Assembly (NCBI GenBank): GCA_041663665.1
Contig: JBAYMG010000007.1
Coordinates: forward strand, 1-58,939
Origin: Candidatus Omnitrophota bacterium
GTDB taxonomy: Bacteria > Omnitrophota > Gorgyraeia > Gygaellales > Profunditerraquicolaceae
DNA length: 58,939 nt
Direction: 5' to 3'
The translations under genes were made by a program, and so were the position numbers. Numbering within the stretch: the stretch's first letter is position 1; each line of letters opens with the position of its first letter. Below the pieces are notes generated by a model, which saw nothing but the letters and a program-made list of their open reading frames with translations, searched no databases and was not told the origin of the DNA. Positions 5,376 to 42,949 of this stretch are shown here, piece by piece.

Positions 5376-6266
5376 ATGCATAATGAAATCGGGCATTCCA
5401 AAGAGAAGCGTTTGATCATATCGGCGGTTCTTAATTTTACTACTACTGTGGCGCAGATCATCGGAGGAATTCTTTCAGGCAGCCTTTCGCTGATTTCTGA
5501 TTCTTTGCACAATTTAACTGATAGCGTAGCTTTAGTAATCAGTTTCTTTGCTGTGCGATTAGCGAAAAGGAAAAATACTGAAGCCCAGACGTTTGGGTTT
5601 AAGCGCGCCGAAATCCTGGCAGCTCTTTTTAACGCCTGCGTATTGGTAATAGTCTCAGTGTTTCTCTTTAAGGAAGCATTGGTTAGATTTGCTCATCCAT
5701 ATGCGGTCAACAGCCTGCTCATGCTGTCAGTTGCCTCAATCGGGTTAATTGCGAATATTGTTTCCGTGTTTCTCCTTAAAACACATGCGCATGAAGACCT
5801 AAATATAAGGGCTGCCTATGTGCATCTTTTTTCGGATTTTCTTTCTTCAATTGCAGTGATTATCGGAGCAATAGCGATTTTTATTTTCAAGGCATATTGG
5901 ATTGACCCTTTGTTGACAATTCTTATTGGAATATATGTATTAAGGGAAGGATATAAGATTATCGAAGAAAGCACGCATATCCTTATGCAGCATGTTCCCA
6001 AGGGGATAAATTTAAGGGAGATCCAGGCGCAGATTGAAGGCATTGCCGGGGTAAAAGACATTCACCACGCGCATCTCTGGGCAGTAACTGGGCGGGATAT
6101 TCATTTTGAGGCGCATATTAATGTGTCGCGCGATATGCCGGTGAGTGAAACTTGTCTTTTGGTTAAGCAGACAGAAGGTATACTTAAGGATCGTTTTGCA
6201 ATTACCCATGTAACATTACAAATAGAATTTAATTCCTGTAAGGGTGTGGCTTTGGTTAAGGCGTAA
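5376..6266 (+). CDS. Cation diffusion facilitator (CzcD/ZitB-like Zn/Co/Cd exporter)
   Basis: SLSLISDSLHNLTD, TFGFKRAEILAA, NIRAAYVHLFSD, DIHHAHLW, HVTLQIE. Confidence 0.93.
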   Translation: MHNEIGHSKEKRLIISAVLNFTTTVAQIIGGILSGSLSLISDSLHNLTDSVALVISFFAVRLAKRKNTEAQTFGFKRAEILAALFNACVLVIVSVFLFKEALVRFAHPYAVNSLLMLSVASIGLIANIVSVFLLKTHAHEDLNIRAAYVHLFSDFLSSIAVIIGAIAIFIFKAYWIDPLLTILIGIYVLREGYKIIEESTHILMQHVPKGINLREIQAQIEGIAGVKDIHHAHLWAVTGRDIHFEAHINVSRDMPVSETCLLVKQTEGILKDRFAITHVTLQIEFNSCKGVALVKA

Positions 6267-23770: not shown

Positions 23771-24985
23771 ATGAAAGATTTAATTAAGGCTAAGGCAAAA
23801 GGATTGAATGAATCACTGGTTAAGTTTTCCCGCAGAATTGCTGATTGTAATTCTACCGGCACTACGTCAGAATTTACTAAATTAATCTCTGAGGAGATGA
23901 AAAGCTTGAATTTTGATAAAGTGACTAACGATAAGTCAGGTAATCTGATCGGAGTTATTAAGGGATACGAAAATAAAGATGCGCTGGTGGTTATTTCGCA
24001 CCTGGATATTCTGTCGCCGCAAGAACAGAGAACAGAGGCTTGCCTTAAAAGCGGGGTAGTTAAATATAAAGGGGGAATAGTTTCCAGTGTGTACTCCGGG
24101 GCGCTTGTAAAAAGAACATTGTTGCCGTTAACCGGGGATTTAATTGTTTGCTGTATACCCAGGCATGAGTGTTGCGACTCAGGCATAAAGTATCTTTTTG
24201 AGAATTATTTAAAACCAAAGCTTAAAAAAATACGCGGAGTTATTCTTTGCGAGCCGACTGATTTTAATATTCATCTCGGGCACAAAGGAAGAATGGAATA
24301 TGAAATAATTGTTAAAGGCAGGCTGAACCGGAACTTTTTAGAAAATAAAAGCATGAACATGCTGGGGGCAATGTTCCCCTTAATCAGCGAATTGGAAAAA
24401 GCTTCAAAACAATTACCCAGTGATTCTAACTTGGGATATTCTAATCTCAGGATTAAGGATGTCAGATATAGCGGATATCATCCGGAAGATGAACTTAATG
24501 AGTTCAGGGTAGTTGTTGACCGGGTGTTTATTCCTGAGGAAAATCTTAGCGGTATTCTGGATAAAGCAAAGACTATTGCTAAGAATGTGTACAAGGGGGA
24601 GTTGGATATAACTATTAATACCGCTTTGGCCAGGGAAAAAGTAAAAACCTATACCGGTTTAGAGCTTGTTTCGGAGAAGGAATTTAAGCCCTGGGTAATG
24701 GAAAGCCATCATCCTTTTGCGTTAGAGTCACTTAAAAGCCTGGTGGATAACGGTTTTAAATCTTCCTTTGGGTATTGGAAGAAGATTATCACTGAAGGTT
24801 CATATACTTGCGCGGAATTAAATATACCTACGATTGGTTTCGGTGCCGGCTTAGAGGATACAATAGATTCAGACACTGAATCGCTGAGTATGGATAAATT
24901 AGAAAGAGCAGTATACGGGCAAGCGTTGATTATCCAAAGGAATATTGGGGTACCGACATTTGGCTGGAGTTCAGATGAAATATAA
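23771..24985 (+). CDS. M20/DapE-family (YgeY-like) hydrolase homologue with degenerate metal site
   Basis: EEMKSLNFDKV..DKSGNLIG, SHLD, CEPT, GHKGRMEY, IPTIGFGAG match the YgeY/M20 layout; GRGxxD and the C-terminal His ligand are not recognisable. Confidence 0.75.
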   Translation: MKDLIKAKAKGLNESLVKFSRRIADCNSTGTTSEFTKLISEEMKSLNFDKVTNDKSGNLIGVIKGYENKDALVVISHLDILSPQEQRTEACLKSGVVKYKGGIVSSVYSGALVKRTLLPLTGDLIVCCIPRHECCDSGIKYLFENYLKPKLKKIRGVILCEPTDFNIHLGHKGRMEYEIIVKGRLNRNFLENKSMNMLGAMFPLISELEKASKQLPSDSNLGYSNLRIKDVRYSGYHPEDELNEFRVVVDRVFIPEENLSGILDKAKTIAKNVYKGELDITINTALAREKVKTYTGLELVSEKEFKPWVMESHHPFALESLKSLVDNGFKSSFGYWKKIITEGSYTCAELNIPTIGFGAGLEDTIDSDTESLSMDKLERAVYGQALIIQRNIGVPTFGWSSDEI

Positions 24986-26210
24986 AAAAACAAAGATCAA
25001 TATTTTAACCTTGAATTGCGGCAGTTCTTCTTTGAAATACAGGATAATTAGGATGCCGGAGGAGAAATGCCTGGTTCAGGGGGAAGCTGAAAGAGTGGGA
25101 ATTAAAACCCAGGGGGATTCTGTAATTACTCATTCGGTTTTAGGTAAAACCAGAGTTATTAAACTTAAGCTTAAGGATCACGCTGAGGCGTTGAATAAAA
25201 TTTTAAGCTTGATAGCTAACGATGCGCGAGAGAATAAAGAAATAATTTTTGATATTTTTGCGCACCGCTATGTTCATCCCGGTAATTTTTTTACTAAGCC
25301 TGTAAAAGTGAATAAAATTGTTTTAGGTAAGTTGAAAGAAACTTTAAGTTTAGCAGCAATTCATAATCCCATCATCTATAATTTAATTGAATTCTGTAAC
25401 CGAAAATACAAAGCAGTTGAGCAATACGTTGTGTTCGATACCGCGTTTCATAAAACTATACCCGCTGAATTCTCCACCTACGCCCTTCCGGTGAAATTAT
25501 CCAAGAAATATGGCTTAAAGAAAATCGGTTTTCATGGTATATCGCATCAGTATGTAATGGAGGAGGCTTGCAGATTTTTAAAACGGGATCCTAAATTGCA
25601 GAAGGTAATCAGCTGCCATTTGGGCACAGGAGGATCCAGTATTTGTGCAATCAATCGGGGTAAATCATTTAACACTTCTATGGGGTTCACGCCTTTAGAA
25701 GGCTTGGTTATGAATACCCGCTGCGGGGACCTGGATTTAGGAGTTATTTTTTACATAATGTTCAAAGAGAATTTCTCCCCGGTAGAGGCTGAAAATATCC
25801 TTAATAAGAAAAGCGGGATTTTAGGCCTGTTCAGTTCCTCCTCGGATCTAAGGGATGTGGTTGGCAACATTGATACCGATCAAAAGGCAAAAATGGCATT
25901 TGATATGTATGTGCAGAGGGTAAAGGCATATTTAAGTTTTTACGTTTTAATCCTTAAAAAAGCGGATATTTTAATTTTCACAGATTCATTGGGTACCGGA
26001 GTCCCTTTATTGCGCCAGAGTATTTGCGCTAACCTGGATTTTTTAGGGATTAGTTTAGATAAAGATAAAAATCAGGCTTATCAGGATGGAATAGCCCAGC
26101 TAGGGTCTGCGCAGAGCCAAACAAAGATACTGGTTGTTCCGACCAATGAAGAACTTATGATTGCCAAAGAAACTTATAAGGAGTTAATAAAAAATGATAC
26201 TCGTAATTGA
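24975..26210 (+). CDS. ackA: Acetate kinase family protein with atypical nucleotide-binding loops
   Basis: LNCGSSSLKY, HRYVH, FDTAFH, GFHGISH, CHLGTGGSS, TSMGFTPLEG..TRCGD, SDLR, FTDSLG, PTNEE; ATG 24975 preferred. Confidence 0.9.
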   Translation: MKYKKTKINILTLNCGSSSLKYRIIRMPEEKCLVQGEAERVGIKTQGDSVITHSVLGKTRVIKLKLKDHAEALNKILSLIANDARENKEIIFDIFAHRYVHPGNFFTKPVKVNKIVLGKLKETLSLAAIHNPIIYNLIEFCNRKYKAVEQYVVFDTAFHKTIPAEFSTYALPVKLSKKYGLKKIGFHGISHQYVMEEACRFLKRDPKLQKVISCHLGTGGSSICAINRGKSFNTSMGFTPLEGLVMNTRCGDLDLGVIFYIMFKENFSPVEAENILNKKSGILGLFSSSSDLRDVVGNIDTDQKAKMAFDMYVQRVKAYLSFYVLILKKADILIFTDSLGTGVPLLRQSICANLDFLGISLDKDKNQAYQDGIAQLGSAQSQTKILVVPTNEELMIAKETYKELIKNDTRN

Positions 26211-27288
26211 AATGAATCTGAAGGATGTTAAATTTTGGATTTATAAACAAAAAAATATGGGGCTGTCGCATTTTTTTGTAAAGGATATAGAAGAAGTCAG
26301 AACGAGCAAAACACTTAAAAATGATATTCTTAATTTTACCGGCAGCAGCAAGATCGAGGCGATCTCATTCAGGATTTTATTCGGGGGGGATTTTTTTGAT
26401 AAAACCACAGTAATTAATCAACAGTTTTTTACTAAATTCAGCAAGCTGACTGAATTTTTCCCTTTTTATATACCTTTAATATTGGATATGCTGAAAATAT
26501 TTTACCGTGATTTTAAAGATATTCCGCAAATTGCTTTTTTTGAAACCTCTTTTTTTTCCAAGCTGCCGGAAGAAGAAAAATATTATGCGATTCCGCAGGA
26601 GTTCCATAAGGATAATAAAATAAAAAAATGGGGTTTCCATGGGATATACCATGAAGCTAACTCGGGCATGTTCCCCCAGGGGCGAAAATGTATTTCTATA
26701 GTTTTTGATAAACAAACTACAGTTTGCGCGATTAAAGATAGCAAGCCATTAATGATCAGCCTCGGGTTTACACCGTTAGAAGGTGTCATGTCCCGGACCA
26801 GCTGCGGAGACCTGGATCCGGGAATAGTCTTTTATCTGGTAAATGTTCATAAATTTTCAATTTATAAAATCGATGATATCTTAAAAAATGAAAGCGGGTT
26901 TTTGGGGCTTACGGGTTATGATTTAGAGCTAAATGAATTATTAAAATTTTATGGTAAAGACCCCAAGGTGAACGTGGCTTTTGATGTGTATCAGGCGCAA
27001 ATATTAAAATACATTGGAGAAGGTATTTCTGTTTTAGGCGGGCTGGATCAGATTGTATTCTCAGGCAGCCAGGTTGATGCGTTTAATCCGATCATCTACA
27101 GCCTGATTAAAAAGATTTCATTTCTAGGTATTAATACTATAAGATTGCCTTGGGCTAATGATAAGAAAACATTTCAGATTACCTCTGTGGATTCTGAGAT
27201 CAAAGTGCATCTTAACCGGGTTAATCTAGCTGAAACTATTTTTTACGGGACCGAGAAACTTTTACATAAAAAATCATCGAAACTATAA
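26194..27288 (+). CDS. Degenerate second acetate-kinase-fold protein (probable pseudoenzyme)
   Basis: Retains GFHG and LGFTPLEG..SCGDLDPG; lacks GSSSLK, HRxVH, DTAFH, HLGxG, the catalytic Arg of TRxG and PTNEE. Confidence 0.8.
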   Translation: MILVIEMNLKDVKFWIYKQKNMGLSHFFVKDIEEVRTSKTLKNDILNFTGSSKIEAISFRILFGGDFFDKTTVINQQFFTKFSKLTEFFPFYIPLILDMLKIFYRDFKDIPQIAFFETSFFSKLPEEEKYYAIPQEFHKDNKIKKWGFHGIYHEANSGMFPQGRKCISIVFDKQTTVCAIKDSKPLMISLGFTPLEGVMSRTSCGDLDPGIVFYLVNVHKFSIYKIDDILKNESGFLGLTGYDLELNELLKFYGKDPKVNVAFDVYQAQILKYIGEGISVLGGLDQIVFSGSQVDAFNPIIYSLIKKISFLGINTIRLPWANDKKTFQITSVDSEIKVHLNRVNLAETIFYGTEKLLHKKSSKL

Positions 27289-33470: not shown

Positions 33471-34070
33471 ATGGCAAATTATACCGCTTCAATAGAAAAA
33501 TTAATTGAGTGTTTGATTAAATTACCCGGAGTTGGCCGGCGTAGCGCTGAGCGTATTGTCGCACATGTTCTAGGCGCTTCCAAAGATGAAATTAAGATTT
33601 TATCTGAGGCTTTGGATAAAGTGAAGAGCAGTGTCCGTTCATGCCAGATTTGCAATAATTTAAGCGAAGAGGATACTTGTAAAATTTGCCAGGATATTAG
33701 GAGGCAGAAGGATATAGTTTGTGTAGTTGAGAAGCCAAGCGATGTTACGGCGATTGAAAAAGCAGGTGCTTTTCACGGCCTTTATCATGTTTTGCTTGGT
33801 TCGATATCTCCTCTTGAAGGAAGAGGCCCGAGCGATTTAAAAATTGAAGGGCTTATTCAGAGGATAAAGCAGGGAAATATTAAAGAAATAATTATTGCCA
33901 CCGATGCGGATACTGAAGGCGAAACTACGGCTATGTATCTTACTAAAATACTTAAGCCATCAGGCGTGCATTTGAGCCGTATTGGTTTAGGAATTCCAGT
34001 TGGTTCGAATCTGGAATATGCTGATGCTACCACCCTTTCGAAGTCTTTAGAATCTCGCCGCGCTATCTAA
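33471..34070 (+). CDS. recR: Recombination mediator RecR
   Basis: LPGVGRRSAER, CQIC..C.IC, YHVL.G.ISPL, TOPRIM EGETTA. Confidence 0.97.
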   Translation: MANYTASIEKLIECLIKLPGVGRRSAERIVAHVLGASKDEIKILSEALDKVKSSVRSCQICNNLSEEDTCKICQDIRRQKDIVCVVEKPSDVTAIEKAGAFHGLYHVLLGSISPLEGRGPSDLKIEGLIQRIKQGNIKEIIIATDADTEGETTAMYLTKILKPSGVHLSRIGLGIPVGSNLEYADATTLSKSLESRRAI

Positions 34071-34075
34071 CTGTT

Positions 34076-36001
34076 ATGATTAATATTAATAATCTCTCTA
34101 AAAACTATGGAAGTAAGGTCCTTTTCGAGGACATTTCTCTTAATATAAATGAAGGAGAAAAAATCGGCCTTATCGGACCAAATGGTACAGGCAAGAGTAC
34201 TTTATTTTCTTTAATTTTAGGAGAACTTGAATCTACTAAAGGTGAAGTAAGATTAAATAAAGGCGTGCATGTTGGCTATCTTCCCCAGGAGGCGAGTTTT
34301 AAATCTGAACAAACTGTGCTTGCGGAGTTAACTGAAGGCGATGAGAGGATCATGCGCTTTAAGAAAGAAAAAGAAGCTTTGGAATCTAAAAATGAAGCCG
34401 GATCAAAGCGTTACGGCGAGGTTTTGCATGAATTGGAGACTTTAGGTTTTTTTGAGCTTGAGCATAAAGCTGAGAAAATTCTTTCGGGCCTGGGTTTTAA
34501 GGAAAAAGATTTTAACCGGAAAATCGTGCAGTTAAGCGGAGGCTGGCAGATGCGCGCTCTTTTAGCGAAACTGCTTACTTATCAGTATGATCTTTTGCTG
34601 CTTGATGAACCGACTAACTATTTAGATTTAAATGCTGCGCTATGGCTTAAAGATTATCTGGCGAGTTTCAGGGGAACATTTATTATGATTTCACACGACC
34701 GGGCATTTTTAACCGACGTTACCAACTATACCTTGATTTTAGAACATGGTTCGATTTTTAAGGTCCAGGGAAATTATGAGCATTATGAGGAAATAAAAGC
34801 GCAAAGGCTTATTCATTTAGTTAAACAGTCTAAGGAACAGGATAAAAAAATAGAGCAGCTAGAGAAATTTGTGGCAAGGTTCCATGCCCAACCGAATAAG
34901 GCTGCTTCAGTGCGTGCTAAGCGGCGTGTTCTGGAAAAAATGGAAGAAGATAAAGTTGTTTTACCTGCTGACCCGCGCCAGAGTATCAGCAGTTTTACTT
35001 TTCCGCAGACCCGTCGATCCGGGCACCGGGTAGTTAATTTGGAAAAAATTTCAAAAGCTTATGGAGATATTCAGGTTTATAAGGATTTAGATTTTGAAAT
35101 AGCCCAAGGGGAGAAAGCGGTTTTAGCCGGAGAAAATGGAGTCGGGAAATCCACTCTGTTAAAGATTCTGGCTGGAATTGTAGGAATAGATAGCGGGAAT
35201 AGGGCTATCGGACACAATGTGGACATCGGATATTTTTCGCAGACTCGTACTGATGTTTTGAATATCGAAAATACTGTTTTGCAGGAAGCTTATTCGGCAG
35301 CTCCCGGTTATATGGCGGAAGAAGCGGTCAGGACTATTTTGGGTGCGTTTTTATTTAGCGGTGACGATGCTGAGAAAAAAGTTAAGGTGTTGTCCGGAGG
35401 GGAGAAAAGCCGGCTTATTTTAGCTAAGCTTTTGATTAATCCGCCGAACTTTTTACTTTTAGATGAACCGACCACTCACCTTGATGTGGATGCGGTTGAT
35501 GCTTTAGTCCGGGCGCTAAAAAATTATGAAGGCACAATTGTTTTTATCAGCCATGATATTTATTTTGTTAGTTCGGTAGCAAATATTGTTTTTGAGGTTA
35601 AGTCCGGCAGGATCAGGAAGTTCCCCGGGACATTTGATTATTACCTTGAGAAGCGCGATACTTTGACTGATTCGGCAGAAAATCAAAGATCAAAATCTGT
35701 TTCTCATAAACCAATCGATGAAGTAAAAGAGAAAGCTAAAGAAGAAGAGCGTTTGGTTAAAATCGATGAGAAAAAACGTAAGACCAATAATTCTGTAATC
35801 CGTGATAAAATTAATAAGCTGGTGAAAAAAATAGAAGAACTGCAATTGGAGAGTTATGCTAAAGCGCGTGCTTTGTCCAGCCCGCATTTTTACCGCGACG
35901 AAGAAACAGCTAAAGAGTATGGCCGTCGGATGAAAGAGATTGAAAAGCTGATTTTAGAGATTCAAGGCCAGATAAAAGCGCTTGAAAATCAGATTATTTA
36001 G
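34076..36001 (+). CDS. ABC-F family ATPase
   Basis: Two ABC domains (GPNGTGKST/LSGGW/LLDEPTN and GENGVGKST/LSGGEK/LLDEPTTH), no TM segments, coiled-coil tail. Confidence 0.95.
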   Translation: MININNLSKNYGSKVLFEDISLNINEGEKIGLIGPNGTGKSTLFSLILGELESTKGEVRLNKGVHVGYLPQEASFKSEQTVLAELTEGDERIMRFKKEKEALESKNEAGSKRYGEVLHELETLGFFELEHKAEKILSGLGFKEKDFNRKIVQLSGGWQMRALLAKLLTYQYDLLLLDEPTNYLDLNAALWLKDYLASFRGTFIMISHDRAFLTDVTNYTLILEHGSIFKVQGNYEHYEEIKAQRLIHLVKQSKEQDKKIEQLEKFVARFHAQPNKAASVRAKRRVLEKMEEDKVVLPADPRQSISSFTFPQTRRSGHRVVNLEKISKAYGDIQVYKDLDFEIAQGEKAVLAGENGVGKSTLLKILAGIVGIDSGNRAIGHNVDIGYFSQTRTDVLNIENTVLQEAYSAAPGYMAEEAVRTILGAFLFSGDDAEKKVKVLSGGEKSRLILAKLLINPPNFLLLDEPTTHLDVDAVDALVRALKNYEGTIVFISHDIYFVSSVANIVFEVKSGRIRKFPGTFDYYLEKRDTLTDSAENQRSKSVSHKPIDEVKEKAKEEERLVKIDEKKRKTNNSVIRDKINKLVKKIEELQLESYAKARALSSPHFYRDEETAKEYGRRMKEIEKLILEIQGQIKALENQII

Positions 36002-36030
36002 TGATAAAATGCACCACAATTAGATTTTAT

Positions 36031-36106
36031 TCCCCCTTAGCTCAGTTGGTAGAGCGAGAGACTGTTAATCTCCAGGTCCTAGGTTCGAGTCCTAGAGGGG
36101 GAGCCA
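36031..36106 (+). tRNA. tRNA-Asn (GTT)
   Basis: TCCCCCT/AGGGGGA acceptor, G73 + CCA, loop CTGTTAA, CTAGG-TTCGAGT-CCTAG T arm. Confidence 0.95.
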
Positions 36107-36111
36107 ATCTT

Positions 36112-36144
36112 AAACGCCCAAGTAAATGCTTGGGCGTTTTTTTT
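36112..36144 (+). terminator. Intrinsic terminator after tRNA-Asn
   Basis: AAACGCCCAAG-TAAATG-CTTGGGCGTTT followed by a T-run. Confidence 0.85.
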
Positions 36145-36424
36145 GCCTTTGGTTCCTCGAGAATACTCGAACCAAAGGGGTGTGAGGTAAAATTCACCTC
36201 GTACTTAGGGTAGAATAGCGTTAAGGGGTGGTGCTCTCTACTAAAGATCGACGAATTGTTTTTAAATAAACTTAAAGACATTCTTTAGTTTGCGATTCTC
36301 TGTTAATGTGTTAGAATATTATTAAGAAAATGCGTTGATAGGAGTCTGGTTTGGGGTATAAAAAGGATAACAATCAGGTAAAAGTGGTATGTTTGAATGG
36401 TGAATCTGCCACTATAATATAATC

Positions 36425-36459
36425 AAACCTTCGCTCGGATAGGGCGGAGGTTTTTTGTT
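36425..36459 (+). terminator. Intrinsic terminator-like hairpin
   Basis: AAACCTTCGCTC-GGATA-GGGCGGAGGTTT followed by TTTG. Confidence 0.55.
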
Positions 36460-36484
36460 TCAGGATGCAATACAAAGGTTAATT

Positions 36485-36631
36485 ATGTCTAGAGTCAAGA
36501 AATCCGATAGTAAAACAAAAAAATAGAACCATTTGAAGCCACGCTGTGGCAATCGGCGAAATAAGTTGCGCAAGAATATAGATGCGGGAGAATATAAACA
36601 TATATTGCTCGGATTAATTTTTTTGCGAATA
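36485..36631 (+). pseudogene. hsdM: 5' stub of a type I R-M methyltransferase gene, frameshifted and truncated
   Basis: Across two 1-nt shifts in A-runs it reads MSRVKKSDSKTKK/IEPFEATLWQSA/NKLRKNIDAGEYKHILLGLIFLR, the HsdM N-terminal pattern; similarity ends at repeat E1. Confidence 0.75.
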
Positions 36632-36749
36632 GTAGACAGTCTATGTAACTTGTTATGAGTGGTAAATTTATGAAACAAATATTTGGAATAGGCTATGTGC
36701 ATTTGTTTTGTTAGTGTTAGGATATTAAGCGGTTATGTAAACTGTTTAC
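36632..36749. repeat. Repeat E1: 118 bp element with 18 bp imperfect terminal inverted repeats
   Basis: GTAGACAGTCTATGTAAC ... GTTATGTAAACTGTTTAC (14/18 complementary); aligns with E2 and E3. Confidence 0.8.
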
Positions 36750-36769
36750 ATCCCGGAGCGTGAAGGAAG

Positions 36770-37129
36770 ATGGAAAAAAGTTTCGCGGTAGATTTTGCCA
36801 ATGATTGGATTAGTGCTTGGAATAGCCATGATCTGATAAGGATTCTTTCTCATTATAGTGATGATTTTGAGATGGCTTCGCCGATGATCGTGGAGATTAT
36901 GGCTAATTCTTCCGGAGTTTTGAAGGGGAAGGATGCGGTTGGCGCTTATTGGGCTAAGGCATTGCAAATGGTTCCCAATCTGCGTTTTGAGCTAATGATG
37001 GTTTGTGCGGGAGTAAACAGTATTACAATCCAGTATCGGGGTGTTGGCGGAAGGATTGCCGTTGAAGTTTTCTCTTTTGGCCTTGATCGCAAGGTCACCA
37101 AGGCGCATGCGCATTATGAGGAAAAGTAG
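36770..37129 (+). CDS. SnoaL/NTF2-like family protein
   Basis: FANDWISAWNSHDLIRILSHYSDDFEMASP...GKDAVGAYW. Confidence 0.88.
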   Translation: MEKSFAVDFANDWISAWNSHDLIRILSHYSDDFEMASPMIVEIMANSSGVLKGKDAVGAYWAKALQMVPNLRFELMMVCAGVNSITIQYRGVGGRIAVEVFSFGLDRKVTKAHAHYEEK

Positions 37130-37170
37130 CGTTTTTGTTTTTATGATTAACGATAAAGATAAGAAAGGTT

Positions 37171-37770
37171 GTGACGGGATTGAATAAAATCCTTATTTTA
37201 AACGGCAGTCCGAAGAAGAACGGCAATACCACCAAGCTTGTCTCCTGGTTCAGCGCGGAGGCGCGCGCAAAGGGCGCAAGCGTCAAGATTGTGTGTGCGG
37301 CGTCTTTGGTATCTAAGGTAAACGGATGTACCTCCTGCCGGGCCTGTCAGAAAAGCGCAAAGTATGAATGCGTGATAAAAGATGACGTCAATGATGTCTT
37401 AAAAGAGATGCAGAAGGCGGATGTGATCGTTTTTGCCACACCGCTTTATTTCTACGGGCCGAGCGCCCAACTTAAGTTGATTATCGACCGGATGTTTTCG
37501 CTTTATAAGTGGGATAATAAGACTAATACTTTTACTTCTCCGATGAGAGGAAAGGCGATGGGCCTTATCTTAAGCGCTTATGAAGATACCGGGTTGGATA
37601 TAGTCGAGAAGTCTTTTAAGCTTATCGCGGATTACAGTGATATGAGATTTAGTTCTCTCCTGGTGCCTGACGCGCGAGAGTCGGGAGAAGTTCAGGATAC
37701 AAGAGGAATTCGCGGCAAGGTCAAGAAGTTTGCGCAAAGTCTAAAATTAGGAGATGCTTCAGGGGTTTGA
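37171..37770 (+). CDS. Flavodoxin family / iron-sulfur flavoprotein-like protein
   Basis: LNGSPKKNGNT, CTSCRACQK...C, ATPLYF, LKLIIDR; GTG start with AGAAAGG RBS. Confidence 0.88.
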   Translation: MTGLNKILILNGSPKKNGNTTKLVSWFSAEARAKGASVKIVCAASLVSKVNGCTSCRACQKSAKYECVIKDDVNDVLKEMQKADVIVFATPLYFYGPSAQLKLIIDRMFSLYKWDNKTNTFTSPMRGKAMGLILSAYEDTGLDIVEKSFKLIADYSDMRFSSLLVPDARESGEVQDTRGIRGKVKKFAQSLKLGDASGV

Positions 37771-37786
37771 ATTGGAGATGTTTTAG

Positions 37787-38209
37787 ATGTTGGATTGGAA
37801 GATATTCGCGATTGGGTCGGCGGTGTTCGCGGGAATGACCGCGGTTTTAGCTAAGGTTGGAGTAAAGAATATTTCCTCAAATCTGGCTACTTTAATACGT
37901 ACGGTGGTGATTATTTTATTTTTAGGGATATTAGTTGTTATCCGCAAGGAATGGCAAAATCCTTTTGAGATTAATCGCCGCAGTTTGATATTCCTGGTTT
38001 TGTCCGCGATTACAACCGGGCTATCCTGGATATGCTATTACCGGGCCCTGCAGACAGGACCGGCTTCTTTGGTTGCCCCGATTGATAAATTAAGTGTGGT
38101 ATTTGCGGTATTCTTGGCGCTTTTATTCTTGGGTGAACGCCCGGGAATATATGAGTGGGTTGGAATCGGGCTTATTGTTAGTGGGACGTTAATAATTATT
38201 TTAAAATAA
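37787..38209 (+). CDS. EamA/DMT-family small transporter
   Basis: SAVFAGMTAVLAKVG, ATLIRT, TGLSWICYYRAL, VAPIDKLS. Confidence 0.9.
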   Translation: MLDWKIFAIGSAVFAGMTAVLAKVGVKNISSNLATLIRTVVIILFLGILVVIRKEWQNPFEINRRSLIFLVLSAITTGLSWICYYRALQTGPASLVAPIDKLSVVFAVFLALLFLGERPGIYEWVGIGLIVSGTLIIILK

Positions 38210-38256
38210 GGTTAAGTGATGTTAAGGTAGGGAGGCCGGGGAAGCCTGGATCATAT

Positions 38257-38328
38257 ATGAAAAGATTTATTTGTTGCGCGGTAATGGTATTGTTATCTAC
38301 CGGATTACTTTTTGCTCAAGAAAAATAA
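38257..38328 (+). pseudogene. Signal-peptide-only gene stub next to repeat E2
   Basis: MKRFICCAVMVLLSTGLLFAQEK* ends 12 bp before E2. Confidence 0.45.
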
Positions 38329-38340
38329 CATAGTAGAAAT

Positions 38341-38460
38341 GTAGACAGTCTATGTAATTTATTGCAACCAATAGTGTTATATAACAAATATTTTAACTTA
38401 AGATTATCTGTATTTCTTTTGTAATTCTTTTAGTTTTAAATAGTTGCATACACTGTCTAC
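38341..38460. repeat. Repeat E2: 120 bp element with 18 bp terminal inverted repeats
   Basis: GTAGACAGTCTATGTAAT ... GTTGCATACACTGTCTAC (15/18). Confidence 0.85.
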
Positions 38461-38506
38461 TTCTTACTTCTTAAGCGAGGTGTATTTGTGTAAAAAGGAG
38501 GTTGGT

Positions 38507-39601
38507 ATGGTAAAAAGGTATTTAGCGGTTGTTTTGGTTGCAACGGGGATTTTCTTTACGCTGGCAAGAGGTTCATCTTTTGCTTGCACGGATTTTCAGG
38601 TGAAGGCTAAAGACGGCACGGTGGTGATCGGCCGCTCTATGGAATTTCCCGTGGATTTACATTCTAAGGCGATTATCGTGCCAATCGGTGAACAGTTTGT
38701 TAGCATAAATAACAAGGGGGCCAAGGGAATAACCTGGACGAATAAATACGGTTTTCTGGGAATAGATGCTTATAATCTTAAAAATTGCTATGTGGAGGGT
38801 TTTAATGAGGAAGGCTTGGCTTTTGACGCCTTAATGTTTACCGGGGCGGAATATCAGGAGGCAGTCCCAGGGAAATTCGTAACGGTTAACGATTTTGGGT
38901 CCTGGATTATGGGAAATTTCGCAACCGTTGAAGAGGTAAAAGGAGCTTTATCTAAAATGAATGTTGCGGGAAATAACTTGAAAGAAACAGGCGGAGAATT
39001 GTACATGCATGTTGCTGTACATGATGCTCTGGGGAAGAACCTGGTGATTGAGTTTATCGGTGGGAAGGTGAAAGTTTATGATAATCCGTTAGGCGTAATG
39101 ACTAATCGCCCGGATTTTGAGTGGCAGATTAATAACTTAAGAAATTATATTAATCTGGAGGCGCAAGATAAAAAAACCCGGATGCTTAACGGCTTAAAAT
39201 TAGAGCCCACCGGAGTTGGCAGCGGCCTGCTGGGGTTACCCGGTGACTGGACTCCTCCGTCAAGGTTTGTGCGCGTCGCGTTTTCTTTAGACGCCTCTCT
39301 GTCGGCAAAAGATGCCCTTGAGGCCGTAAATCTGGCGGAACATCTTTTAAACGTGGTGGATATTCCTAAAGGGGTGATTGAGGAGAATCCTGCTCCTTTA
39401 GTGCATATGCAAGGTTATGCCCAATGGGTGGTGATTAAAGATTTGACGAACCGTATTTTGTATTATAAAACTTACGAAAATACCGCGTGGAAGATGATCG
39501 ACTTAAAGAAATTCAGCTTTGAGCCGGGATCCGCCAAAAAATCCATAGTCATAGATGATCAGCAGCAAAATTTTATCGATCTAACTGACCAACTAAAATA
39601 A
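38507..39601 (+). CDS. Exported linear amide C-N hydrolase (choloylglycine hydrolase/penicillin V acylase family)
   Basis: AAGGAGG RBS + ATG 38507, signal peptide then SFA|CT Ntn nucleophile, GRSMEF, NEEG, LPGDWTPPSRF. Confidence 0.92.
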   Translation: MVKRYLAVVLVATGIFFTLARGSSFACTDFQVKAKDGTVVIGRSMEFPVDLHSKAIIVPIGEQFVSINNKGAKGITWTNKYGFLGIDAYNLKNCYVEGFNEEGLAFDALMFTGAEYQEAVPGKFVTVNDFGSWIMGNFATVEEVKGALSKMNVAGNNLKETGGELYMHVAVHDALGKNLVIEFIGGKVKVYDNPLGVMTNRPDFEWQINNLRNYINLEAQDKKTRMLNGLKLEPTGVGSGLLGLPGDWTPPSRFVRVAFSLDASLSAKDALEAVNLAEHLLNVVDIPKGVIEENPAPLVHMQGYAQWVVIKDLTNRILYYKTYENTAWKMIDLKKFSFEPGSAKKSIVIDDQQQNFIDLTDQLK

Positions 39602-39707
39602 AAGTAGTCCGCAGCGGTAAGTTGTTGCGTAAAAGGAAGGTTTTGATTCAATCAACTAAGGAATCGGGATGATTAATGGTAAATAAAAATAAGATTGCGA
39701 GGGAAAA

Positions 39708-40334
39708 ATGAAAAAACTTCTGCATATTATTGCTTCACCGCGTAAAGAAGAATCACGTACACTACGGGTCTCAGCGGTTTTTCTTAAGACGTTTAAGGAA
39801 AGTCATCCGGATTGGGTGGTTGAGGAGTTGGATCTTACTCAGGAACAGCTGCCTTTGCTTAGCGCTAGGCGCCTGGACGGTAAATATGTACTTTTAGGGG
39901 GTAAAGATCTTCCCGAGGAGCTAAAAGAAGCCTGGAAGGAAATCATTGCGCATATCGAGCGGTTTAAGTCCGCGGATGCTTATCTTGTCAGCACTCCGAT
40001 GTGGAATTTCAGTATTCCGTATACATTAAAGCATTATCTGGATGTTATTTTACAACCGAGATACCTGTTTCGATATACGGCTACCGGAGTCGAAGGATTG
40101 ATAAAAAATAAGCCGGTGATTGTGATTACCAGCCGTGGCGGGGATTATACTGTTCCTGAGAGGCGCGCGGGGGATTTTCAAGAGCCGTATCTGCGTTTTG
40201 TATTCGGGCTCATTGGTGTCACGGATCTTAGTTTTATTAACGCCCAACCCATGGATATGGGCGGGGATCTTCAGACTCAGAAAATAAATGAAGCTCAAGC
40301 TAAAGCAAAAGAGCTTGCTGCGCGATTAGGGTAA
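39708..40334 (+). CDS. azoR: FMN-dependent NADH-azoreductase (AzoR/AcpD family)
   Basis: IIASPR, STPMWNFSIPYTLKHYLD, ITSRGG, QEPYLR..FG.IG. Confidence 0.92.
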   Translation: MKKLLHIIASPRKEESRTLRVSAVFLKTFKESHPDWVVEELDLTQEQLPLLSARRLDGKYVLLGGKDLPEELKEAWKEIIAHIERFKSADAYLVSTPMWNFSIPYTLKHYLDVILQPRYLFRYTATGVEGLIKNKPVIVITSRGGDYTVPERRAGDFQEPYLRFVFGLIGVTDLSFINAQPMDMGGDLQTQKINEAQAKAKELAARLG

Positions 40335-40342
40335 GAAGATCG

Positions 40343-40462
40343 GTAGACAGTTTATGTAACCCGTTATAAATTATATTGTTATGTAACAAATATATTAGAG
40401 ATAATTATTGCGTATTTCTTCTGTAATATCAAGAATCGCATATAGTTACATACACTGTCTAC
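40343..40462. repeat. Repeat E3: 120 bp element with 18 bp terminal inverted repeats
   Basis: GTAGACAGTTTATGTAAC ... GTTACATACACTGTCTAC (17/18). Confidence 0.85.
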
Positions 40463-40541
40463 ATTACTAAAGATAGAGAGTGTGTTTAGTATATTGTTTG
40501 CAGGGTTTTTTGTTTAGGCTATAATAAATTTAAGTTACACT

Positions 40542-40712
40542 AAATCAGCGGCAAAGAAATATCAAAAGACAATACCGGCAGCTCCGGATGAAGAATATTA
40601 TATCTTGAGTTTTAATACAGTTTTTGGAAATAAAGCATCTGCTATAGAAACAGTTACTGTCATGAAGGATCAGGATGGTCAGTGGCGTTTGGCAGGATAT
40701 TTTGTAAGATAA
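40542..40712 (+). pseudogene. 3' remnant of a DUF4019-like gene
   Basis: KSAAKKYQKTIPAAPDEEYYILSFNTVFGNKASAIETVTVMKDQDGQWRLAGYFVR*; in-frame TAG at 40515-40517 and no ATG after it before this segment. Confidence 0.65.
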
Positions 40713-40746
40713 TTCTATATGCACTTTTGGTTGTCAGGCGGATAAA

Positions 40747-42555
40747 ATGTATATATTAGGAATCTCTTGTTTCTATCATGATAGCGCGGCGTGTATAGTT
40801 TGCGATGGCAAGATTATCGCTGCTGTCCAGGAAGAGCGCTTTACCCGCAAAAAGCATGATGCCGGTTTTCCGATCAATTCTATAAATTATTGCCTAGAAA
40901 AGTCAGGGATTGGCGGCAAGGATTTAAATTTTGTTGTATTCTACGAAAAACCGTTTATTAAGTTTGAGCGTATTTTGGAAACCGCGCTTAGTTATGCTCC
41001 AAGCGGAATAAGCCAATTCATTGAAGCAGTACCTGTTTGGCTTAAGCAAAAGCTTTGGGTTACTGAGATAATCAGGGCTCGCCTGGGTTTTAACGGGAAA
41101 GTTCTTTATACCGGGCATCATGAGTCGCATGCCGCAAGTGCGTTTTATCCTTCGCCTTTTAAAGAGGCCGCATTTTTAACAATAGACGGAGTTGGAGAAT
41201 GGGAGACGGCAAGTTTTGGCCTTGGTCAAGACAACAACTTAACTATTCAACAGTATCTCGAATTCCCTAATTCTCTAGGCTTGTTGTATTCGGCGTTTAC
41301 TTATTATATCGGTTTTAGGGTTAATTCCGGAGAGTACAAGCTTATGGGGCTGGCTCCTTATGGCCGGCCGATATATAAAGATATAATTTTTAAAGAACTG
41401 ATTGATCTAAAAGATGACGGTTCATTTAAGATTAATATGAGATATTTCGGGTATTGTAATAGCCTGCGGATGACAAATTGGCGTTTTAATCGTCTTTTTG
41501 GCGGTAACCCGAGAAAGCCTGAAACTAAAATTACTCAGAAACATATGGATCTAGCCGCTTCTATCCAGGCAGTAACGGAAGAAATTATGCTTAAGATGGT
41601 TAAGCATGTTCATAAGGTTACTGGACAGAATAAGCTTTGCCTTGCCGGAGGAGTGGCGTTGAATTGCGTAGGTAATGGAAGAATTTCCCGTGAAGGCCTG
41701 TTTAAAGAGATTTGGGTGCAACCGGCAAGCGGGGATGCGGGGGGCGCGTTAGGTGCGGCACTTTTAGTTTGGTATAAATATTTAGGTAATATGCGTAGTG
41801 TAGACGGGGCTAATAATTTACAGAAAGCTTCATTGTTGGGCCCTGCTTATAGTGATGAAGATATCGAGGACTTTCTTAAAAAAAGCAAGATTCCTTATGT
41901 CCGTTTGGGGTATGCTGATATAGTAGAAAAAGTTTCCGATTTGATTGTTGATGGCATGGTTGTTGGCTGGTTTCAGGGGAGAATAGAATTTGGCCCTAGA
42001 GCTCTTGGGGCAAGAAGTATTTTGGGGGATGCCCGTAATCCGGGTATGCAGTCTAAGATGAATCTCAAGATCAAACATCGTGAATCTTTTCGCCCTTTCG
42101 CGTCTGCTGTTTTAAAGGAGGATGCTTCGGAATGGTTTGAGTTAGGCCAAGAAAGCCCCTATATGCTTTTGGTGTCCCCGGTAAAAAGCGATAAAAGGTT
42201 AGAGGTAAAATCAGATTTAAGCGGATTTGATAAATTAAAGATAATACGTTCTTTGGTCCCTGCAGTAACGCATGTGGATTATTCTTCCCGGATCCAGACA
42301 GTTAATAAAGATGATAACCCTCTTTATTATGACCTGATTGCTAAGTTTTGCAGTAAAACCGGATGTCCGGTTATAATCAATACATCTTTTAATGTCAGAG
42401 GAGAGCCGCTAGTTTTAACTTACGAAGATGCTTTTAAATGTTTTATGCGCACGGAAATTGATTATTTAATGCTGGGTAGTTTTCTGTTGAATAAGAAAGA
42501 TCAGGAGCCTATTGTCGAAGATGCAAACCGGCGAAAGGAATTTGAATTAGATTAA
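40747..42555 (+). CDS. O-carbamoyltransferase (NodU/CmcH/SxtI family)
   Basis: LGISCFYHDSAA, QEERFTRKKH, HHESHAASAF, DGVGEW, EYKLMGLAPYG, AGGVALNC, GDAGG, EFGPRALG, LNTSFN-like INTSFN. Confidence 0.95.
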   Translation: MYILGISCFYHDSAACIVCDGKIIAAVQEERFTRKKHDAGFPINSINYCLEKSGIGGKDLNFVVFYEKPFIKFERILETALSYAPSGISQFIEAVPVWLKQKLWVTEIIRARLGFNGKVLYTGHHESHAASAFYPSPFKEAAFLTIDGVGEWETASFGLGQDNNLTIQQYLEFPNSLGLLYSAFTYYIGFRVNSGEYKLMGLAPYGRPIYKDIIFKELIDLKDDGSFKINMRYFGYCNSLRMTNWRFNRLFGGNPRKPETKITQKHMDLAASIQAVTEEIMLKMVKHVHKVTGQNKLCLAGGVALNCVGNGRISREGLFKEIWVQPASGDAGGALGAALLVWYKYLGNMRSVDGANNLQKASLLGPAYSDEDIEDFLKKSKIPYVRLGYADIVEKVSDLIVDGMVVGWFQGRIEFGPRALGARSILGDARNPGMQSKMNLKIKHRESFRPFASAVLKEDASEWFELGQESPYMLLVSPVKSDKRLEVKSDLSGFDKLKIIRSLVPAVTHVDYSSRIQTVNKDDNPLYYDLIAKFCSKTGCPVIINTSFNVRGEPLVLTYEDAFKCFMRTEIDYLMLGSFLLNKKDQEPIVEDANRRKEFELD

Positions 42556-42556
42556 A

Positions 42557-42949
42557 ATGGAAAAACTTAATTTGGATAAAAAAACATTTAAAAAATTCGG
42601 GATAACCTTTGGTTTAATTTTTTTAGTTATCTCAAGTTTACTTTTCTTCCGGCATAAATATGCCGGTGCGCAGTTTAGCCTTGTAATTTCGGGCATATTC
42701 GCGGCTGCGGGATTGTTTTTACCTGCTTTTTTAAAGCCGGCGTATATAATTTGGATGCGTTTTGTTTTTATTTTAGGTTGGATTAATACCCGGCTTATTC
42801 TAATTGTTATGTTTTATGCAATTTTTGCTCCGTTAGGCTTGTTTATGAAATTATTCAGAATTGATTTATTGGGGCGGAGGAAAACAGGAGACACATATTG
42901 GAACAAAAAGATAGAGCCTAACCCCTTGGATTATGAAAGGAGATTCTAG
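42557..42949 (+). CDS. SxtJ-family membrane protein
   Basis: FKKFGITFG, WMRF..ILGWINTRLIL..FY..FAPLGL. Confidence 0.85.
   Translation: MEKLNLDKKTFKKFGITFGLIFLVISSLLFFRHKYAGAQFSLVISGIFAAAGLFLPAFLKPAYIIWMRFVFILGWINTRLILIVMFYAIFAPLGLFMKLFRIDLLGRRKTGDTYWNKKIEPNPLDYERRF

Follow-up and report, generated by a model that had tools for sequence, protein, structure and literature searches.

What are the three symmetric elements of about 120 bp, here named E1, E2 and E3, that punctuate an accessory stretch of a genome of the candidate phylum Omnitrophota? They lie in the 58.9-kb stretch of DNA that we analysed (the window), which is the final part of a 218.7-kb contig from a landfill metagenome. An earlier note, made from the letters of the window, had proposed either recombination sites of an undescribed cassette-shuffling system or miniature inverted-repeat transposable elements (MITEs) made of two multi-site transposon ends of the IS21/Tn7 type. 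We conclude, with a probability of about 0.78, that E1-E3 are non-autonomous repeat pairs, resembling REPINs, BIMEs or dimers of terminal inverted repeats (TIRs), and that they belong to a system native to Omnitrophota of the kind formed by repetitive extragenic palindromic (REP) sequences and REP-associated tyrosine transposases (RAYTs). We place them with this kind rather than with a new cassette system because the 52-nt repeat of which they are built also flanks a single-copy RAYT gene in related genomes.

Most of what the note had described in the elements themselves is borne out. The three stand where it had placed them (Table 1), with 1591 bp between E1 and E2 and 1882 bp between E2 and E3, and their outer 18-bp inverted repeats are complementary at 14/18, 15/18 and 17/18 positions. 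At up to three mismatches the 18-mer GTAGACAGTNTATGTAAC matches the window six times, every match being one of the six element ends; 0.06 matches were expected from shuffles, and 0 of 100 shuffles reached six. A relaxed, sensitive search with a hidden Markov model (HMM) found no further copy of the family in the window. In the alignment of E1-E3 the outer and inner blocks are conserved and the spacers between them have diverged, as had been claimed, and the inner sites correspond to box B of the family-wide repeat described below. No target duplication is seen in the sequence at any of the three, again in agreement with the note. Other details needed adjustment. The four sites counted per element are real, but they amount to two bipartite 52-nt ends, each with a box A and a box B; the TATGTAAC core recurs at the left inner site in E3 and E2 but not across the family; and the direct orientation of the elements is weakly grounded, their mutual identity being 0.67-0.73 when aligned direct versus 0.60-0.67 when aligned inverted. 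Scored by nhmmer with a model of 317 ends, the left and right arms reach 41.3 and 36.8 in E2, 40.6 and 37.7 in E3, and 38.3 and 17.2 in E1, the right arm of which is degenerate. In single-strand folds of both strands, E2 and E3 pair through the conserved outer 18 nt only, and in E1 these do not pair either. No promoter or terminator signal was found in E1-E3 (13 promoter matches versus 12.5 expected), and Rfam at the gathering threshold returned three tRNAs only over the whole window. Logan contigs from three public runs carry the same E1-E3 arrangement, at low depth and without usable junctions.

The note had looked to further copies elsewhere, and hundreds exist, so that an absence of other copies cannot be held against it. 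A pattern that spans both the outer and the inner site, for which we estimated about one chance match from its information content, recovered 92 loci from metagenomes. A slightly looser pattern recovered at least 116 loci from species-representative genomes, 113 of those listed coming from about 29 Candidatus Omnitrophota metagenome-assembled genomes (MAGs); one listed locus, which has real ends, sits in a bin labelled Planctomycetales. Matches in Nitrosomonadaceae and Calothrix lacked HMM support and were set aside as chance, as was a link to phages, since the family HMM finds 0 ends in the loci of the 11 single viral-contig matches. As to copy number, at least 24 ends occur in the fetched parts of one 474-kb contig, and six in the window (fetched loci are given L numbers below).

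When 317 distinct ends are stacked tip inwards, conservation halts sharply at position 52. Each end is composed of box A, GTAGACAGTnTAYGTAA(C), a fixed spacing of about 19 nt, and box B, (G)TTAYRAAASAAATAY, the TTAYRAAASAAATAY core spanning positions 37-51 from the tip. The stretch between the boxes is variable except at T23 and A31, which, together with T37, T38, A39 and A50, are conserved positions outside the search pattern. In the GTAG head, all ends have T2 and A3, position 1 is G in 289 of the 317 ends and A in 28, and 314 carry G at position 4. The ends occur as singles (169 distinct), as tip-outward pairs (72 distinct, 109-159 bp long with a mode of 119, and 5-55 bp between the ends) and as clusters, for example at L016. 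At L016 (631-875) and L056 (80-324), three ends of the same orientation follow each other at 90-100-bp spacing, which recalls BIME arrays. A helical phasing of the pair length classes 109, 119, 138 and 158 was considered and then abandoned, since most of the 157-159 class comes from a single orthologous locus, between nadD and rpe. A second repeat family, of the classical form, is present in the MAG C19_metabat.bin.11: the perfect "double-foot" palindrome GTAGGGTGGGTTTAAACCCACCCTAC, with six exact copies and about as many degenerate ones (L121 at 5929-5954, L109, L131, L174 and L220), one of which was inserted near a family pair, 20 bp from its tip.

An enzyme carrying the same ends, for which the note had proposed to hunt, also exists: a RAYT-like Y1 HUH transposase is enclosed by the ends in 20 loci, at most one per MAG. 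There, two tip-out ends lie 844-1265 bp apart around a protein of 226-230 amino acids; in most of the 20, both ends, or the sole end inside the fetched stretch, point tip-outward. About 120 bp separate the upstream tip from the start codon, and about 36-45 bp lie between the stop codon and the downstream tip. Because the same two tip-outward ends enclose the RAYT, the pairs look like the transposase unit minus its gene. The protein matches Pfam Y1_Tnp above cutoff (E 5e-15), and its best NCBIfam match is REP_Tyr_transpos (REP-associated tyrosine transposase, NF047646; E 1e-18); the IS200 model gives 21 bits versus a cutoff of 55. A PDB sequence search with the RAYT returned no match, so a fold search was needed, and the AF2 model (pLDDT 79) has as its best fold match 4ER8, the structure of E. 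coli TnpAREP with a REP hairpin; the transposases of IS608 and ISDra2 rank behind it. When 32 homologues of the protein (228 amino acids) are aligned, they display NHYH, with HYH invariant, LWQGRFK, and RY.ERNP / Y[IV]ERNP, along with a conserved C-terminal region of about 100 amino acids, in which no Pfam helix-turn-helix (HTH) domain was matched. Homologues number more than 4,300; the closest 120 are all about 228 amino acids long and, where named, from Omnitrophota.

In at least 11 MAGs the gene occupies a conserved place, with tyrS, an end, the RAYT gene and a second, opposed end followed by SemiSWEET, rfbA, rfbD and rfbB. The stop codon of tyrS is the TAG of the GTAG head, and a BrnT/BrnA pair with an extra end sometimes lies between the downstream end and SemiSWEET. 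To judge from the sequences, the RAYT is a resident, single-copy, vertically inherited gene and not an insertion sequence. RAYT homologues of 55-60% identity at other loci have the same end layout with a different sequence: their variant ends read GTAGACGCTTTAMYTAAC...TTACAAAACAATTC, or AAGACRCTnTT..TAAC...GTTACGCAACAAATCC, and the ends of two distant RAYT subgroups have AAGAC in place of GTAG. The ends co-vary with the RAYT subgroups, as would be expected of an enzyme and its substrate. At L213 (3427-4081, in the MAG MEGAHIT-group-1.764) a RAYT homologue aligns in two pieces, residues 1-30 and 34-221, at 50% identity, and is possibly a frameshifted or decaying copy.

The tips of the elements are special sites. 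Among homology breakpoints between related contigs, 19% fall within 30 bp of an element versus 2.7% for random positions, and several fall exactly at the tip in both genomes. Blocks made of cargo plus one end are present or absent between directly oriented ends in three resolved cases, with the junction at the tip. In the first, BrnT/BrnA and an end follow the downstream end of the RAYT at L180, L127, L168, L218 and L078 and are absent at L175, L137 and L115. In the second, at L036, a RelE/HTH toxin-antitoxin (TA) pair and an additional end separate the end behind tyrS from the RAYT gene. In the third, a CBAH gene with its end is followed at L077 by a nitroreductase gene and another end of the same orientation, where L214 has CBAH, a symporter gene and a single end. 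A RelE/HTH module related to that of L036 follows a different end at L068 (10830-11434); the two are 71% identical, and in L068 an end is found on one side only. Runs of three to five same-orientation ends, 1-3 kb apart, occur at L187, L194 and L214. As a side observation, the recurrent cargo between ends near the RAYT consists of TA pairs, BrnT/BrnA (L127, 2397-2913) and RelE/HTH (L036, 829-1433), and the BrnTA block opens with a conserved AT-rich palindrome, TATACATATAATTATATGTA.

Tandem microduplications spanning the tip mark 25 of 315 ends (7.9%) versus 0.18% of 39,981 control positions, a 44-fold excess. Each repeats 4-8 nt of flank together with the outermost 3-9 nt of the end, and some have three copies; examples are found at L195 (3716/3809), L155 (4285) and L038 (734), and at the variant ends of distant RAYTs (L224 and L226). 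In the window, the duplication at the right tip of E2 (Table 1) includes the final 3 nt of the element in its first copy. As to their origin, our guess is that the tip is nicked again and again, with fill-in or slippage afterwards.

Single ends lie nearly always between co-directional genes, with no strand bias relative to them (71 versus 66). The upstream gene stops inside the end in 47 of 80 cases, and for 28 of them the stop codon is the TAG of GTAG. Ends persist at orthologous intergenic sites, where coding flanks are about 77% identical: 518 comparisons found the site occupied, 102 empty and 54 unclear, an occupancy that is inflated by the fetching of loci by pattern. As one example, the site between nadD and rpe is empty at L024, with 7 bp between the genes, and holds pairs of 119-158 bp in at least six genomes; the filled and empty versions, when compared, show no target duplication. 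Non-orthologous pairs are at most 87% identical (median 71%), and the copies are therefore old. With no hairpin, no target duplication and this ceiling on identity, E1-E3 are best described as old non-autonomous pairs of the REPIN or TIR-dimer type.

We propose the following course of events. The RAYT would recognise box A and box B of an end and would cut and rejoin a single strand at the GTAG tip or next to it, leaving no target duplication, in the manner of Y1 HUH enzymes, which act on single strands through a 5'-phosphotyrosine and do not duplicate their target. Such rejoining would seed ends, single or paired, into intergenic DNA, and would make the tips hot spots at which neighbouring DNA is deleted, inserted or replaced. 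Beside the tRNA-Asn gene stand three old, diverged pairs, and rearrangement associated with a tip has truncated hsdM there. Nicking by the RAYT at or beside the tip would thus account for insertions and rearrangements alike. We infer that the enzyme at work on the ends is the RAYT, and both the strand and position of cleavage and any current mobility of the elements are to be understood as equally conditional parts of the proposal. For the E. coli enzyme TnpAREP, GTAG is required and cleavage occurs at a CT dinucleotide near the REP (PMC3479197).

Several results weigh against this interpretation, the first concerning the hairpin. A candidate stem, 11-18/36-43, pairs in 75.6% of cells versus 76.1% in column shuffles, and arm-to-arm identity at variable positions is 0.442 versus 0.454 for random arms. 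A mutual-information scan and contingency tables found no covariation in the 52-nt unit, two variable pairs varying independently, and RNAalifold predicted 0 pairs on it. With mutual information, contingency tables, pair counts and RNAalifold all negative, a hairpin inside the unit was rejected, and the family lacks the feature by which REPs are defined; for a non-palindromic unit without covariation, hairpin recognition of the E. coli TnpAREP type is not to be assumed. The RAYT itself scores 67 bits against NF047646, under the 80-bit equivalog cutoff, and is without the E100/H101/R104-type residues tied to GTAG recognition (PMC6006769), WQ alone being kept. No RAYT, tyrS or rfb gene is present in the 58.9-kb window. 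In the same landfill run, tyrS and a RAYT are found on a 2,989-bp contig whose depth, 10.8x, is that of the window contigs, and this match in depth is the sole tie by which a RAYT may be ascribed to the window's own genome. At an identity of at most 87%, non-orthologous pairs give no sign of recent transposition, and the "cargo plus end" differences could equally stem from plain recombination between the 18-bp box A repeats. Finally, the fetching of loci by pattern inflates the conservation of pattern positions as well as the occupancy of orthologous sites.

Of the rival explanations, the one that survives best holds that the ends are binding sites domesticated by the host, regulatory, architectural or replication-related, which selection maintains and for which the RAYT would be a binding or maintenance protein. 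It draws on the predominance of occupied over empty sites at such diverged flanks, on boxes that stay conserved while spacers are randomised, and on the absence of near-identical copies at different sites. The single-copy RAYT, with its conserved locus and C-terminal domain, and the stop codons that ends supply to upstream genes would also suit such a role. The ascertainment is nevertheless biased towards occupied sites, the ends are fixed neither in position nor in orientation to genes, and E1-E3 are without promoter or terminator signal; moreover, the empty sites and tip microduplications suggest that DNA processing continues. We judge domestication unlikely as the explanation, but give it real weight.

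The exact-tip differences in cargo leave a modest probability to a cassette-like explanation, in which the RAYT would excise an end or pair, together with the DNA as far as the next tip, as a single-stranded circle that would be re-inserted at the tip of another end; we regard such RAYT-driven exchange as rather unlikely, a little more so than domestication. E1-cargo-E2-cargo-E3 would then be a two-cassette array, which we find similarly doubtful, and the RAYT with its GTAG-headed ends would be an integron analogue driven by an HUH nuclease, carrying TA pairs and small redox and transport genes, a suggestion that we offer as tentative at best. Were it true, E1-E3 by the tRNA-Asn gene would be a small cassette array and the microduplications would be scars of nicking. 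The gain and loss of BrnT/BrnA, RelE/HTH and nitroreductase blocks with junctions at a tip, the related RelE/HTH module behind a different end, the runs of same-orientation ends, the cutting of hsdM at the tip of E1, and the occurrence of CBAH beside ends with different neighbours in six genomes all speak for exchange. However, no identical cassette is found in two contexts, the shared TA module being diverged and its end at L068 one-sided, and deletion by recombination between 18-bp direct repeats fits the differences equally. The majority of ends stand singly or in pairs in housekeeping intergenic spaces, such as nadD-rpe and the rfb operon, and single ends face either way relative to genes. 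The undescribed cassette-shuffling system of the earlier note is unsupported as it was stated: the kind is a known one, and its elements are mostly single, in ordinary intergenic spaces of about 29 MAGs.

A gene block on the same strand follows each element, as it would with transcription-factor operator arrays upstream of three downstream operons. The 52-nt unit, however, also lies 3' of genes and over stop codons, faces both ways, and in at least 11 MAGs surrounds the RAYT gene; promoters are not enriched in the elements, and E3 precedes a gene fragment only. Operators are thus very improbable. The MITE alternative of the note was right in that the elements are non-autonomous and consist of the two ends of a longer unit, and terminal inverted repeats with a second internal site do resemble multi-site transposon ends. 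As MITEs of an IS21/Tn7-like DDE transposon, however, they would be expected neither to enclose a Y1 HUH RAYT as the sole protein family repeatedly found between ends, nor to lack a target duplication at E1-E3 and in the clean filled/empty pair, and no DDE transposase is flanked by ends in the loci with examined gene maps; we consider this origin hardly credible. Integron attC-like sites or Xer (pdif-like) module boundaries, suggested by the length of about 120 bp, the imperfect symmetry, the RYYYAAC/GTTRRRY-like cores (6/7 by eye) and the small accessory genes between, can be dismissed almost entirely, since no integrase is present among the genes named by Pfam at 33471-42949 or the gene calls over 23471-44070, the outer 18 nt alone pair in single-strand folds and the arms do not covary, conservation runs 10 nt beyond the would-be R box, each module holds two or three genes, and the elements are scattered singly through genomes; the note had itself set the layout apart from attC.

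Table 1. Positions of the three elements and of neighbouring features in the window.
Feature	Position	Strand	Evidence and remarks
tRNA-Asn(GTT)	36031..36106	+	ARAGORN, Rfam; left border of the accessory stretch
hsdM pseudogene fragment	36485..36631	+	Pfam HsdM_N, E 1.3e-8; about 55 N-terminal codons, two frameshifts
E1	36632..36749	.	Tip-out pair of two 52-nt ends; arms 36632-36683 (+) and 36698-36749 (-)
SnoaL_2 gene	36770-37129	+	Pfam; between E1 and E2
FMN_red gene	37171-37770	+	Pfam; between E1 and E2
EamA half-transporter	37787-38209	+	Pfam; between E1 and E2
Signal-peptide-like open reading frame, 23 codons	38257..38328	+	Sequence; ends 12 bp left of E2
E2	38341..38460	.	Tip-out pair; arms 38341-38392 (+) and 38409-38460 (-)
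Tandem 7-nt duplication TACTTCT/TACTTCT	38458..38471	.	Straddles the right tip of E2
Choloylglycine-hydrolase-family amidase (CBAH)	38507-39601	+	Pfam; between E2 and E3
Flavodoxin_2/azoreductase-like gene	39708-40334	+	Pfam; between E2 and E3
E3	40343..40462	.	Tip-out pair; arms 40343-40394 (+) and 40411-40462 (-)
DUF4019 gene, C-terminal half	40545..40712	+	Pfam, E 2.4e-15; profile positions 55-104 of 104

E1-E3 lie in an accessory stretch of 4.6 kb, which is bordered by the tRNA-Asn gene on one side and a carbamoyltransferase gene on the other. The truncated genes that had been reported next to all three elements are present: an HsdM fragment at E1, half of a DUF4019 gene by E3, and at E2 the open reading frame of 23 codons, which may be a gene remnant. 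The hsdM fragment, from a type I restriction-modification methylase, covers HsdM_N profile positions 2-36 of 135 and stops exactly at the left tip of E1, and that of DUF4019 lies about 80 bp right of E3, its N-terminal half being absent. Terminator-like hairpins occupy 36112-36139 and 36425-36453, between the tRNA-Asn gene and the hsdM remnant. No orthologue of the stretch from tRNA-Asn to the carbamoyltransferase gene was found among the fetched loci of other MAGs; L189 has the carbamoyltransferase gene in a different context, and looking up the exact carbamoyltransferase protein of the window returned no record. CBAH homologues, at 78-80% amino acid identity, stand beside family ends in five other loci or genomes, with different neighbours each time. 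At L077 (2512-4212) and L139 (1851-3514), CBAH and an unannotated gene of 183-188 amino acids are adjacent in reversed order, which could reflect circular permutation or independent rearrangement. The stretch in the window fits an accessory region reshaped by end-associated deletions and insertions, and mobility of its two modules finds no support in any of the data at hand. Elsewhere in the window (24945-27288), two adjoining genes of the acetate kinase family, both matched by PF00871, overlap by 17 bp.

We believe that the family matters beyond this locus. RAYT group 1 and TnpAY1 subclass 2.1 have been reported without a REP-like partner or with loosely described TIRs only, and work on REP/RAYT systems has so far been almost confined to Proteobacteria. 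The uncultured phylum Omnitrophota supplies an alignable partner sequence for such a RAYT, in more than 300 distinct copies, with a GTAG head and no hairpin, and hence a concrete substrate for asking how a Y1 HUH enzyme reads ends that are not hairpins. The exact-tip junctions and the excess of microduplications are testable footprints of DNA processing in vivo and bear on what RAYTs do. The 52-nt model can also flag intergenic repeats and rearrangement hot spots in the annotation of Omnitrophota MAGs.

Among known systems, integron attC arrays share with the family imperfectly symmetric sites of about 120 bp, small accessory genes, TA cargo and the gain or loss of cargo with one site. The family differs from them in lacking IntI, a conserved bottom-strand hairpin and a single array by an attI, and in its association with an HUH nuclease instead of a tyrosine recombinase. 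With insertion sequences of the IS200/IS605 group (IS608 and ISDra2), it has in common the Y1 HUH core, the lack of target duplication and an expected single-strand cut-and-rejoin chemistry, from which junctions at exactly one nucleotide would follow. Those sequences carry different left and right subterminal hairpins in direct orientation and are multi-copy, near-identical and often accompanied by tnpB, whereas the Omnitrophota system has a single-copy gene between inverted ends that are alike.

The likeness is closer to the REP, BIME and REPIN-RAYT (TnpAREP) systems of Escherichia, Pseudomonas and Stenotrophomonas (PMC2817692, PMC3116915, PMC3479197, PMC8266576). The GTAG head, the single-copy, vertically inherited RAYT between its own inverted repeats, the co-variation of ends with RAYT, the inverted doublet as a common non-autonomous form, the extragenic location, mostly between co-directional genes, and the best fold match, the E. 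coli enzyme of 4ER8, are all shared. REPs are palindromes of 20-40 nt that form single-strand hairpins, whereas the Omnitrophota unit has 52 nt and no covariation-supported stem; unlike REPINs, its doublets do not keep their arms complementary and form no long hairpin, and its copies, at no more than 87% identity, are not a population around a master sequence. The residues by which E. coli TnpAREP reads GTAG are kept in part (WQ). REPs typically exceed 100 copies per genome, and the Omnitrophota count comes from fetched stretches only.

The TIRYT genes and TIRtrons of Di Nocera et al. 2013 (PMC3733652) have been equated with TnpAY1 subclass 2.1 (Quentin et al. 2018, PMC6006769), and RAYT group 1 (Bertels et al. 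2017, PMC5581495) is the same grouping. TIRYT genes are RAYT-like and have long inverted-repeat flanks, the repeats being moderately abundant as singles, dimers and clusters (PMC3733652). By motifs and length alone, the Omnitrophota RAYT would be assigned here, with 226-230 amino acids versus about 230-240, NH[YF]H, WQ, Y..NP and the C-terminal extension. Like a TIRtron, it is a low-copy gene between long, non-hairpin terminal inverted repeats that also occur as singles, dimers and clusters. The published TIRs have been described as unrelated to GTAG repeats, many having GGGGWSAS, whereas the Omnitrophota ends are GTAG-headed and carry another conserved box 19 nt inwards; their transposase reads Y[IV]ERNP at the Y motif, not YIELNP or Y[IV]HLNP, and the host phylum is new. 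The family, then, acts like a REP/RAYT system and in form is nearer to the TIRtron: its kind is known, and the GTAG-headed, non-palindromic, bipartite 52-nt end, spread across a candidate phylum, is a variant undescribed in the literature that we searched.

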